From assembly GCA_951406725.2 (NCBI GenBank), contig OX597819.1:104160001-104224000 (forward strand): DNA of 64,000 nt, written 5' to 3'. The position numbers and the translations under genes were made by a program. How positions within the stretch are numbered: position 1 is the first letter of the stretch; each line of letters opens with the position of its first letter. This DNA is from Octopus vulgaris. Its lineage: Eukaryota. Shown in pieces: positions 29,213-58,681 of this stretch. The notes beneath the pieces were generated by a model. That model saw only the letters and a list, made by a program, of their open reading frames with translations, was not told the DNA's origin and made no database searches.

Positions 29213-29773
29213 TATGGCTGCCCCCTCGTTATCGAGTATGGCCATTGCACAAAGCTTAACTGTTACTGGTGCTGTGATCGAATGTGACTTTTTAGCCCAG
29301 CTAAAGATCTACAATGTCTTGTACAAAATTGGCAACTAAAACCTTTACTGGTAATAGCCGGCTGTAACATACATACATATATACATACTTACGTTTATTT
29401 AGTGTTAGCTGTCAATAAATATCATAATAAAGATTAATAATATATTTTATTTCGTTCGACTCAGTCTCTTTCTCCTCTGTATATCACCTGTAGGCGCTCA
29501 AGATCTTCAGGCAACTTATGACCGTTATAACTTGCTTGAGGATCATGTATATCCGCAATGAAACTTAGAGTAACCAGAGACTGACTTGACCTAAACAACA
29601 CAAACACGCGCACACACACGCACGCCCGTACACACAAACACACACACACATACTCACACGCAGGGCACATATACATACGTACATATACATATATATACAT
29701 ATACATACACACACATATATTATATGAATATTAGGAGTGGCTGTGCGGTAAGTAGCTTGCTAACACACATGCG

Positions 29774-29813
29774 CAGTTAGTCAGTTGCTTCCTGTTCAGC
29801 CAGAGTGGACGCG
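29774..29813 (+). promoter_or_regulatory. Putative internal Pol II promoter (Inr + DPE-like)
   Basis: TTAGTC/TCAGTT initiator-like motifs followed by GAGTGGACGCG, with GGACG at 29807-29811. Confidence 0.45.
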
Positions 29814-30464
29814 AGTCAACCAGCTCCGTCCAATTAAAGAAAAAAGACCAAAAACGGAAAGTTGTCGAGGTAAGTGATTTTGTTTATTGTGAGTTGGGCA
29901 TAATTTATTGCGTGCCAATTATTATTTCAGTAAGTTGTGTCCAACTCTGAGACAATTTCGCCTGCTCTCGGCGGCTGCCGTTTTTGTGTTCATTGAAAAA
30001 AAAAGAAAAAACAGTGGAGGGGCGTATCCTCGGAATTCAATACAGTTACTGTTAAAATTACCGTTGACGATAGCCAGTGCTGTGTTTGGGTTTGTTGAAT
30101 TTATTCCCTTGTCAGAGTACTTCGCAAGAAAATTATAAAAATAAGCCACTATTGGATTACCTTTCGGACCCATTTTTGTGGAGGTTGTGTTGCAGTTGCG
30201 GCGTTCCAGGTTCAACCCAGGCCGGGAGTACCGCAAGGCCAGAATATTTTTGCTGTGTTTTTTCTGTTTATTAACTTTCTTTTGAACTTCATTTAACCCC
30301 CCCCCCTTTTGTTTTTTTTCTTTATTGCGACTTTCCGTTGATTTCTTCCCTTCTGTTGTGCTTTCTCCTTTTTGTTTTTTCAAAAATCTATCAAATTTTA
30401 TTTGGACTTTTGAACTTTTTTCTTCTTGCTTTTTGAGTTTAATTTGAATATATTTTTAAAAAAC

Positions 30465-31707
30465 ATGGCAATGAAAAATAACAAAATTTTGGAGTGGGAA
30501 ATCATACCACCTAAAAAGTGGTTAAAAGACCGTGAAGATAGGACGGTGGTGTTGAGAACCTACTCCAAGGCACTCGACACCATCGCCCTATTCGAAAAGA
30601 CGGCAATTGAAAAGGAGTTGGAAGAGTATTTGCCAACAATTAAATTCATTTCCAGGGGTGTCAAATATGCAACGGTGTGGTTGCTATTTGACACCCCTGA
30701 AGAGGCTTGCAAATTTGCTAGCAAACCCCTGGAGGGTAAGGAAATCTTATTCCTGCCAACGTACAAAAAAAAAGAAATTGATGAAAGCTTGCATTTGCGG
30801 GCTGCCACCCGACATAGAACCCGAGTGGATAGAGGAGACTATCCGCCGGGGTCTGGGTGGCAGCGAAACTAAGCTCCTTAATGTAAAAGTTCTTCCTGCG
30901 GCTGCTTGGGTTGGGTCAAAAGCAATTTTGACCCTGTGGACCCAATCAGCCAATCTGGTTCTTCCAGATTTTTTGAAAATGGCCGGGTGCAGGTACCCGG
31001 TGATGCTTGAGGGTCGCCCCCCTAAGTGTCATCGGTGCTTGGAGTCCGGCCACATAAAGAAGAACTGTCCTCGGGAACAAAATAGGATCCCGGAACAGTT
31101 AAGTAAAACCCCTCTAGAAGAAGGAACGATAACGGCCGAGAAAGCAGAGGACTCCTCAAACAGAGGCCGAAAGAGGAAGGTGAGCAACAATGGGTGCTCA
31201 CCAAAGGATAATAGGGATGAGGAGAGGAAGGCGAATCTTCCAGCCACGGAGGAGACGCACCCTCCCTCAGTTGAAAAGGGAAAAAATAAGAAAAAGAGGA
31301 AGAAAAATGGGACATTACCGGCTGTCAGTGTAGCACCGGAATGTCCCGGAACTACGTCGGTTGGGGTTGTGCCACCGACAAGAGAAGGAATACCGTTGGC
31401 GGGAACTGTGCCGCCAACGAAAGAACTGAACGTATTGGTCCTCTTCTATAGAGGAGGAGAAATTGAAAAAAAAATTATGGAACAGCACCACAAGGGAGCA
31501 CCTTTAGCCTTCACACAGGACCCCGAATGGCCTCCGCAGATAGCTGTGGAGGCCGTGGCGTTCGACGTAACGCTTGGGCTAAAGGAGCTCAATGAAGATT
31601 ATAGCTTGGTCCCGGGCGACGCGAACTCGGAACTTGATTACGTTCTGAGGGAGGCGTGGTTGATGGTGGAGGGCGCGGGCACAAGCTATTTCGAGGACGA
31701 TATGTAA
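30465..31707 (+). CDS. LINE ORF1/Gag-like nucleic-acid-binding protein with CCHC zinc knuckle (~413 aa after removing one A in the A9 run at 30765-30773)
   Basis: MAMKNNK...LFLPTYKKK joins KLMKACICGLPPDI...EGRPPKCHRCLESGHIKKNCP (CX2CX4HX4C); basic/disordered C-terminal half with RGRKRK and KKKRKK. Confidence 0.75.
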
Positions 31708-32224
31708 TTATTGAACTGTTAGTATTAATAATGGACTGCTAAGTCCAAAAATTGAAAAATTGTAAGAGGTTTAATACCTCGTTTTGTGTTATCTTTAAAA
31801 AGAACAATGTTTTAGAGAAGCGAAAGTCGGCGGGTGCTTTTTATCTTCTCCCATCCTTATCATCTGTCTTTCGTTATCATTCACTTCATTAATGTCCTCG
31901 TCCAGCCCGCAAAGCTAACTTAATCTGTGTACTGCCTTTATGGCAAATGTTTTGAAATAAAGTAGCTTGCTAACCAACCACATGGTTCCGGGTTCAGTCC
32001 CACTGCGTGGCATCTTGGGCAAGTGTCTTCTGCTATAGCCCCGGGCCGACCAATGCCTTGTGAGTGGATTTGGTAGACGGAAACTGAAAGAAGCCTGAAC
32101 TTGTTCGCATAAACTGTCCCGTTCGTTTTATTTTTATTTTCTCATATATTACCCTTTTTTTTATTCGCTAGACTCTGCACGCATATTTTTTTCTCTCCTT
32201 CTTTCTGTGTTTTTTCTCTGTGTA

Positions 32225-32262
32225 TCTTTCTGTTGAAGAGCGTAGGCTCGAAACGTTAAAGA
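32225..32262 (+). ncRNA. Minimal hammerhead-like motif, atypical core (copy 1)
   Basis: UCUUU-CUGUUGAA-GAGC GUAG GCUC-GAAA-CGUU-AAAGA. Confidence 0.5.
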
Positions 32263-32720
32263 CTTGTTTTATTTATATTTCCTGAGCGCCATACTAATAC
32301 AATTGTTTGTTTGTATTCCACCTGCCTTCGTCTTTTGTTTATTTCCGTAAATCTGCCTTCGTCTTTTGTCTATTTTCATAAAGCTTCCCGTTATATATTA
32401 CGCGCTCACGTGGTCTCACTTTCATCCTATTTCTACCAACACCACTATCAGCTCTTACCTCTACATTGGATTTTCTTTACCCCTTGGATACTTACCATTG
32501 GCTGCACCTCTCTTTCACGGATCAAAGTGACTTTGTTATTGATGTGAAATCCTTAAAAAATATACCACGACGTCTATACATTTCTAACCTTGAACTTGTT
32601 CGCATAAACTGTCCCGTTCGTTTTATTTTTATTTTCTCATATATTACCCTTTTTTTTTATTCGCTAGCCTCTGCACGCATATTTTTTTCTCTCCTTCTTT
32701 CTGTGTTTTTTCTCTGTGTA

Positions 32721-32758
32721 TCTTTCTGTTGAAGAGCGTAGGCTCGAAACGTTAAAGA
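32721..32758 (+). ncRNA. Minimal hammerhead-like motif, atypical core (copy 2)
   Basis: Identical to 32225-32262. Confidence 0.5.
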
Positions 32759-32886
32759 CTTGTTTTATTTATATTTCCTGAGCGCCATACTAATGCAATT
32801 GTTTGTTTGTATTCCACCTGCCTTCGTCTTTTGTTTATTTCCGTAAACCTGCCTTCGTCTTTTGTCTATTTTCATAAAGCTTCCCG

Positions 32887-32944
<58 letters not shown>

Positions 32945-58274: not shown

Positions 58275-58681
58275 GGTGCAGGAGTGGCTGTGTGGTAAGA
58301 AGCTTGCTAACCAACCACATGGTTCCGGGTTCAGTCCCACTGCGTGGCATCTTGGGCAAGTGTCTTCTGCTATAGCCCCAGACCGACCAATGCCTTGTGA
58401 GTGGATTTGGTTGACGAAAACTGAAAGAAGCCTGTCGTATATATGTATATATATATGTATGTGTGTGTGTGTGTTTGTGTGTTTGTCCCCCTAGCATTGC
58501 TTGACAACCGATGCTGGTGTGTTTACGTCCCCGTCACTTAGCGGTTCGGCAAAAGAGACCGATAGAATAAGTACTGGGGTTACAAAGTATAAGTCCCGGG
58601 GTCGATTTCCTCGACTAAAGGCGGTGCTCCAGCATGGCCGCAGTCAAATGACTGAAACAAGTAAAAGAGTAAAAGAGTAAA
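58275..58681 (+). mobile_element. tRNA-derived SINE family A, intact
   Basis: TGGCTGTGTGG A box, GGTTCAGTCCC B box, CTTGGGCAAG CORE-like motif, internal (TA)/(TG) tract, stem-loop tail and (GTAAAAGA)n. Confidence 0.9.

Follow-up and report, generated by a model that had tools for sequence, protein, structure and literature searches.

An ORF1-only non-LTR element family at a single SINE site in Octopus vulgaris, likely mobilised in trans by an L1/Tx1-type LINE

The HAL1 (half-L1) elements of mammals are poly(A)-tailed and dispersed by L1-type insertion, and in 2010 Bao and Jurka reportedly found that their ORF1 evolved faster. They are non-autonomous, encode ORF1p only and derive from an L1-group LINE (PMC5753468). 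Among the telomeric elements of Drosophila, ORF1-only elements make up about 40% of families, while ORF2 loss is said to be absent in non-telomeric Jockeys (PMC13534243; bioRxiv 10.1101/445429); such ORF1-only lineages can yield further ORF1-only families (PMC13534243). Target specificity is a feature of the Tx1 clade, for which the available text of PMC4494074 and PMC4640811 gives U2, U5, 5S, satellites, microsatellites, DNA transposons, and LTR elements as targets, with Tx1L in Tx1D, Keno in U2, Kibi/Koshi in microsatellites, and Tx1-Mar in Mariner-N4 as examples. In stringent-type SINE/LINE pairs, the two partners have a common 3' tail with a stem-loop (PMC3747384). For Octopus vulgaris, a 2026 repeat annotation reports 13 recently active L1-Tx1 families, and its available text contains no mention of ORF1-only elements or SINE targeting (PMC13282606); three octopus tRNA-derived SINEs are cited in PMC4758252. 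We found no description of a SINE-targeting LINE or of cephalopod ORF1-only elements in the mostly open-access literature covered; Repbase, Dfam, and the Zenodo library of PMC13282606 may hold consensus entries.

The stretch of O. vulgaris DNA analysed here (64,000 nt; "the window") contains an insert that is very probably a copy of an old ORF1-only non-LTR lineage which still makes young copies, uses one SINE site, and is likely mobilised in trans by a 5.45-kb L1/Tx1-type LINE. The octopus element works like HAL1 or HeT-A and belongs to neither. Like HAL1, it encodes ORF1p only, is multicopy, and has a maintained ORF1; unlike HAL1, it has an RRM-RRM-CCHC ORF1, no poly(A), one fixed target, a hairpin tag in common with its helper, and arrays, and it does not come from mammalian L1 lineages, its nearest relatives being octopod proteins. 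With HeT-A and other Drosophila telomeric elements it shares ORF1-only families reliant (in the octopus, probably) on the ORF2 of siblings, head-to-tail arrays, and a restricted niche (PMC13534243). However, HeT-A belongs to the Jockey clade, sits at chromosome ends, and performs a host service, whereas the octopus element appears to be L1-group (by the domain set and best solved match of its likely helper), is interstitial, probably cut-and-primed in a SINE, and has no known host role. As in the Tx1 clade, an APE-type LINE enters multicopy sequence including transposons, and non-autonomous passengers (there SINEU on Tx1-Mar) use the same target (PMC4494074; PMC4640811), but the octopus target is a SINE head, which is absent from the targets given in the available text of those papers, the passengers are protein-coding and not SINEs, and specificity is near-absolute (60/60 and 96/96 junctions, see below). 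The octopus tail also has a covarying stem-loop, as in stringent SINE/LINE pairs, but the common tail is only ~37 nt long and sits on a 2-kb coding RNA.

The window copy consists of the following features, given in window positions:
29733..29749, + strand: A-box side (5' part) of the head of the host SINE, before the insertion point; matches the empty SINE from window 58276 and at least 81,957 genomic heads
29750..29764, + strand: first (5') copy of the 15-bp target duplication; the final 5-6 nt probably derive from the element (repeat and family comparison)
29765..30464, + strand: 5' UTR of type A, from genome matches; other families have unrelated 5' UTRs on the same body
29870..29875, + strand: GTAAGT, a 5'-splice-site-like motif, unspliced in 100/100 copies listed
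30465..31707, + strand: ORF1, frameshifted in the window copy near 30764-30776; 414 aa in intact copies, with a predicted layout of two RRM-fold domains (~aa 14-183), a CCHC knuckle, a basic disordered linker, and a small C-terminal domain
31027..31068, + strand: codons of the CX2CX4HX4C zinc knuckle, from sequence (Pfam PF00098, E 0.004, below cut-off)
31708..31959, + strand: 3' UTR common to the ORF1-only families, without ORF2 remnant and without poly(A)
31933..31945, + strand: 4-bp hairpin within the last 37 nt (78% over 37 nt versus the helper LINE; covariation 0.40)
31960..31974, + strand: 3' copy of the target duplication (direct repeat)
31975..32097, + strand: host SINE resumes (B-box side and body), is interrupted at 32098-32887, and continues to ~33140

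An earlier note on this DNA, made from the letters alone, had described a perfect 15-bp direct repeat bracketing 2195 bp, and both the repeat (29750-29764 and 31960-31974) and the distance are as claimed. The 15-bp motif has 3 matches at ≤2 mismatches in the window versus 0.13 expected; the third, at 58297, is an empty SINE (58276-58680) with an uninterrupted target, and comparison with it bears out that the SINE head rejoins once the insert and one repeat are removed. The zinc knuckle (its Pfam zf-CCHC match below the curated cut-off) and basic stretches are likewise present. The single ORF of ~413 aa holds for the family but not for the window copy, in which the ATG at 30465 opens 135 aa and a separate 383-aa stop-to-stop frame with the knuckle ends at 31707, the break falling in the A-run near 30764-30776; an intact ORF of 412-414 aa is found in 13/30 fetched copies. 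Many young copies (L001-L030) are broken near the same A-run, several with frames of 307-309 aa, as would be expected from a hot spot of slippage or from assembly errors in homopolymers. The 3' UTR does end in AATAA(A) as described, but the AATAAA is made up partly of target bases and there is no poly(A) tail. Further downstream, an insert of ~800 bp unrelated to the ORF1-only element (32098-32887) breaks the host SINE at its (TA)n region and holds two copies of a roughly 300-bp unit at a spacing of 496 bp.

The genome search returned 3,228 candidates. Among the 40 scored, 31, including the window copy, are full-length at 92-98% identity, confirming a multicopy ~2.2-kb family with the same ends, and the remaining nine begin at base 354. 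Different target duplications had been predicted for the other copies; instead, one site is used by all of them, and in 30/30 fetched loci the element interrupts the SINE head at an identical position. The exact 3' end of the family, searched with a pattern that left the target out to avoid circularity, occurs at ~210 distinct places (from 329 rows, in which minus-strand matches are doubled), and the target follows directly in 60/60 distinct places among the 100 matches listed (≤1 mismatch). A looser tail-plus-target pattern yielded 1,033 junctions (control 2) versus at least 81,957 empty SINE heads. The element thus occupies only ~1% of SINE heads, which makes a role in SINE control unlikely. 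The junctions are distributed along whole contigs, within SINEs, rather than at chromosome ends. One target variant, AAGAAG, is found in 18/100 listed empty heads but in 0/60 family and 0/96 helper 3' junctions, which points either to avoidance by the nuclease or to an RNA origin of those bases.

The host repeat fits a tRNA-derived SINE, with a tRNA-like head containing A and B boxes, no coding capacity, and very high copy number. Its head aligns to the genome's tRNA-Lys/Ala genes at z ~5-6 versus shuffled tRNAs (eight anticodon types sampled), with no Rfam tRNA match, and the insertion point falls between the A-box and B-box regions. The suggestion that the element may prefer tRNA-like targets is too weak: the preference is strict for one position in one SINE family and does not extend to tRNA-like sequence at large. 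The target lies within a near-palindrome, with a 9-bp hairpin fold in the commonest SINE variant (SINE head, e.g., L104), and this hairpin may present the nick sites.

Copies arrived at this site by independent insertion. Elements differ by 2.6% on average and their host SINEs by 11% (first 135 nt, 30 loci; two rearranged SINEs inflate the 11%), similar to the 12% among empty SINEs. Element and host-SINE distances are uncorrelated (Mantel r -0.11, p 0.77), so hitchhiking within the SINE is rejected. Six 5'-truncated copies have duplications, of 15-16 nt (L083, L167, L168; L161 with two mismatches), 10 nt (L078), and 7 nt (L085). Because L083 exactly duplicates a variant target, the stagger of ~15 nt is real. 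Part of what had been read as the 5' target-site duplication stems from the element: in full-length copies, its final 5-6 nt vary with the family and not with the target. The target variant is kept in none of 14 informative full-length type-A or helper copies, 13 of which read CTAAC while one differs by a base, and 8/8 type-C copies carry their own version of these bases; the window copy is uninformative here, since its target and family versions coincide. This pattern suggests that the RNA begins inside target-like bases that may pair with the overhang, and the type-A RNA likely starts a few bases upstream of 29765, within the repeat. A single extra T recurs at the 5' junction in two forms (L005, L008, L016, L080, L084, L086; and L010, L013, L076, L081). 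Its occurrence in both family A and the helper may be a common signature of the same enzyme.

The absence of an ORF2 remnant extends from the window to the family, with ORF2 similarity in 0/53 short units. At 30 loci found with a divergent ORF1 protein alone, no ORF2 (0/30) occurs within ~2 kb downstream; a 3' junction is present at 21 of these, a 5' junction at 25, at least one at 27, and neither at 3, and 26/30 match the ORF1-only 3' UTR. At 20 further loci picked for unusual tails, no ORF2 lies between this ORF1 type and the junction, and a search for longer fused proteins returned none, which is weak evidence. The genome searches scored only the best 40-150 candidates, at which depth an autonomous element carrying this type of ORF1 might escape notice. 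Within that depth, the other copies are ~2.2 kb without ORF2, and not the 5-7-kb LINEs with ORF2 behind this ORF1 that would have spoken against the earlier note's proposal of a non-autonomous ORF1-only family that keeps its own protein. That proposal is supported, and the ORF1 is under purifying selection, with dN/dS about 0.1-0.25.

Between families, dN/dS is 0.10-0.24 over the N-terminal 205 aa (at dS 1.2-2.2) and rises to 0.3-0.55 in the C-terminal half. The comparison among copies that had been proposed as a check, made on 17 intact copies of families A and C, gives a pooled value of 0.20 (0.13 for shared changes and 0.30 for singletons); five rows were left out of the set as duplicates or early-frameshifted helper copies. 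The N-terminal 215 aa have a predicted fold (pLDDT 91, 104 sequences) of two RRM-type domains plus the knuckle, while folding of the whole ORF1 from 7 sequences reached pLDDT 34. The best structural matches of the predicted fold are tandem-RRM proteins and La (Z 9.2, rmsd 2.8, 83 aligned), and these Z-scores of 8-9 point to a common RRM fold, not to function. LINE ORF1 proteins act as RNA chaperones, and by analogy the ORF1-only protein may do the same. Pfam recognises zf-CCHC alone in this ORF1 and no L1 ORF1 family, and among named proteins the nearest, at 73% identity, is uncharacterised and comes from Octopus sinensis. ORF1-only elements explain unannotated "uncharacterized" octopus proteins. 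A small C-terminal domain (aa 320-414 in L015) with a conserved P.WP.Q.A.E motif recurs across the ORF1-only families; it is not evident in the helper's ORF1 and has no Pfam match, and the C-terminal 105 aa gave no usable Atlas match.

The upstream sides of the first 30 junctions on contig C1 show what else ends at this site. By tblastn, this ORF1 type precedes 18 of them; its 3' UTR was recognised at a further five and an ORF2 terminus at six, and one was assigned to neither. The ORF2-ended junctions come from LINEs 5.1-5.45 kb long that occupy the same site. An intact copy (L075, 5.45 kb) encodes an ORF1 of 467 aa and an ORF2 of 1133 aa with APE endonuclease, RT, and zf-RVT (PF03372, PF00078, and PF13966, over cut-off). 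The closest solved relative of this ORF2 is human L1 ORF2p (E 8e-67, versus 6e-20 for R2), its octopod relatives include an Argonauta protein at 65%, and no named Tx1 reference is among the 120 listed relatives or Atlas clusters. Its domain set and best solved match indicate an L1/Tx1-type LINE, and it appears to behave like target-specific Tx1 elements: the target follows its 3' end in 96/96 matches, within two differences (the last letter of the search pattern would drop about a quarter of off-target cases).

The DNA common to this LINE and the window element is confined to the last 37 nt, at 78% (blastn E 0.035 alone), and their ORF1s are 28% identical over aa 14-207. Within the tail, the 4-bp stem is paired in 94% of cells, with 8 double changes and a covariation of 0.40 reached in 0/500 shuffles; these rows were chosen for variant tails, related sequences can beat a shuffle control, and there are only 4 pairs. 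A first hairpin count was uninformative because its rows had been selected on the 3' arm. The hairpin is likely a tag recognised by the reverse transcriptase. Nearest-neighbour distances overlap (0.3-2.3% in family A, 0.3-1.5% in the L075 helper family), and two-ORF families at this site number at least three (L075, L090, and L093 types). Altogether, the common target, tail, and ages point to trans-mobilisation, with the L075-type LINE as the likely helper of the ORF1-only elements.

The ORF1-only elements are an old lineage with several families. On a midpoint-rooted tree, ten such ORF1 sequences group in a single clade (100/100) on a branch of 1.95, apart from the helper ORF1 and 23 outside relatives, with octopod proteins as closest relatives; the O. 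sinensis member is a protein without genomic context. The families exchange modules: the body of family A is found under 5' UTR types A, B, and C, and one unit in L037 joins a D-type N-terminus to a B-type C-terminus (dS 0.10 and 0.16). The nine matches that begin at base 354 were considered as a spliced subfamily and rejected: they have different, unrelated 5' UTRs and do not reflect intron loss, and 100/100 listed type-A 5' ends are unspliced. Families and helper occur together in head-to-tail arrays (L035, L037, L079, L087-L088) that range from two to at least eight units; in several arrays, upstream and downstream units are both young. One array (L087-L089, G000:C1:223.69-223.72 Mb) has seven consecutive type-B junctions and then a helper copy, with units 0.1-0.8% apart and a further B copy nearby in opposite orientation; serial insertion or local duplication are both possible there. 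Derivatives also occur. The ~106 bp unit at L060 (G000:C1:39263561), in which a type-A 5' end is joined to the 3' tail, has its own duplication and is an internally deleted, non-coding derivative, and L163 has an 866-bp unit stacked behind a helper-like fragment.

These observations can be combined into a candidate mechanism. Transcription would be driven by the element's own 5' UTR and begin in target-like bases, and the ORF1p of the element, with two predicted RRMs and the knuckle, would coat its own RNA. The ORF2p of the LINE would recognise the 3' hairpin tag, nick the SINE with a ~15 nt stagger, and reverse-transcribe from the nick; the cDNA end would then pair with the target overhang via the target-like 5' bases. 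Because both junctions retain target-like sequence, further elements can insert there, and repeated insertion at the same place would build the mixed head-to-tail arrays in which families could recombine. It is also conceivable, though we hold this only tentatively and regard it as somewhat less probable than its opposite, that arrays co-transcribe parasite and helper and allow promoters and protein halves to be swapped, that a fixed shared target is a general condition for ORF1-only persistence, and that a tag of ~37 nt is enough to direct ORF2p to insert foreign RNA at a defined sequence.

Four other explanations compete with trans-mobilisation of a long-lived ORF1-only lineage. Each ORF1-only family might be a separate, recent deletion product of an extinct or missed autonomous LINE, with the selection on ORF1 dating from the autonomous phase. 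ORF2 has been lost repeatedly in Drosophila telomeric elements (PMC13534243), only the best candidates were scored in our searches, and unsampled relatives could be hidden along the clade's 1.95 branch; against these points, the families have a common 3' UTR unlike that of the helper (the 26/30 protein-found loci), dN/dS is 0.20 within family A/C without a fetched copy that has ORF2, and no ORF2 follows this ORF1 in the 53 units, 30 loci, or 20 variant-tailed loci, to which the missing fused protein adds weakly. We consider this origin improbable. That a different LINE mobilises the ORF1-only elements, the two-ORF element merely having the same target, is less probable again. The junction base, tail, hairpin, target-like 5' start, and absence of poly(A) are common to both, their ages overlap, they share arrays, and with a pattern lacking the hairpin, 100/100 junctions listed have this type of tail, intact or damaged. 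In favour of this alternative, ORF1 identity reaches only 28%, the DNA is similar over no more than 37 nt, and with at least three two-ORF families at the site, more than one pairing of helper and family is conceivable.

If one SINE insertion had been amplified by hitchhiking as a SINE-plus-insert composite, the shared site would reflect descent. All copies do have the same flanking SINE position, and local duplication may have contributed to some arrays (L088), whose units differ by 0.1-0.4%, but nearly identical elements sit in SINEs of different subtypes that are 2-13% apart, unrelated families and 5'-truncated copies with their own duplications occupy the same site, and the insert splits the A and B boxes that the SINE needs. 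Hitchhiking is thereby largely refuted and very unlikely. Least credible of all, to the point of being nearly negligible, is a retrocopy of a host RNA-binding gene, the other outcome that could have overturned the earlier note: the RRM folds are similar to those of La, hnRNP A1, and other host proteins, and the 5' UTR has a splice-donor-like motif, but the relatives of the protein are LINE ORF1s, including one in the same genome, and the element has hundreds of copies, no poly(A), a single target, and 0/100 listed copies spliced.

Read as a trans-mobilised ORF1-only lineage, the octopus elements provide an independent case beside mammalian HAL1 and the Drosophila telomeric elements, and they extend the target range of site-specific LINEs to a SINE. 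They also make it possible to test why a parasite would retain an ORF1p of its own while borrowing ORF2p, since helper and parasite are both young, with intact natural copies, one short target, and a short tag. In flies, ORF2 loss is reported, in the available text of PMC13534243, only for telomeric elements; a second case at a fixed, array-forming target supports the view that ORF1-only survival is linked to a shared target.

Several unrelated 5' UTR types have a GGTRAG motif resembling a 5' splice site 40-120 nt from their start (window 29870-29875; L031, L041, L075, L090, L173). This motif is present in 60/72 units versus 18% of background windows, but in only about 6/14 UTR types. A recurring variant in family A, GTGAGT, retains the donor consensus, with no spliced copy listed. 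The motif might serve as a U1-binding site that is not spliced. In contigs from four sequencing runs presumed to be RNA, pieces from across the element were recovered, and none of the joints listed fell at the donor motif (74 more were not listed). On the helper side, many unnamed ENA metagenome proteins (P0008-P0089) are 45-53% identical to the RT region, nearer to it than named cnidarian or lancelet proteins.
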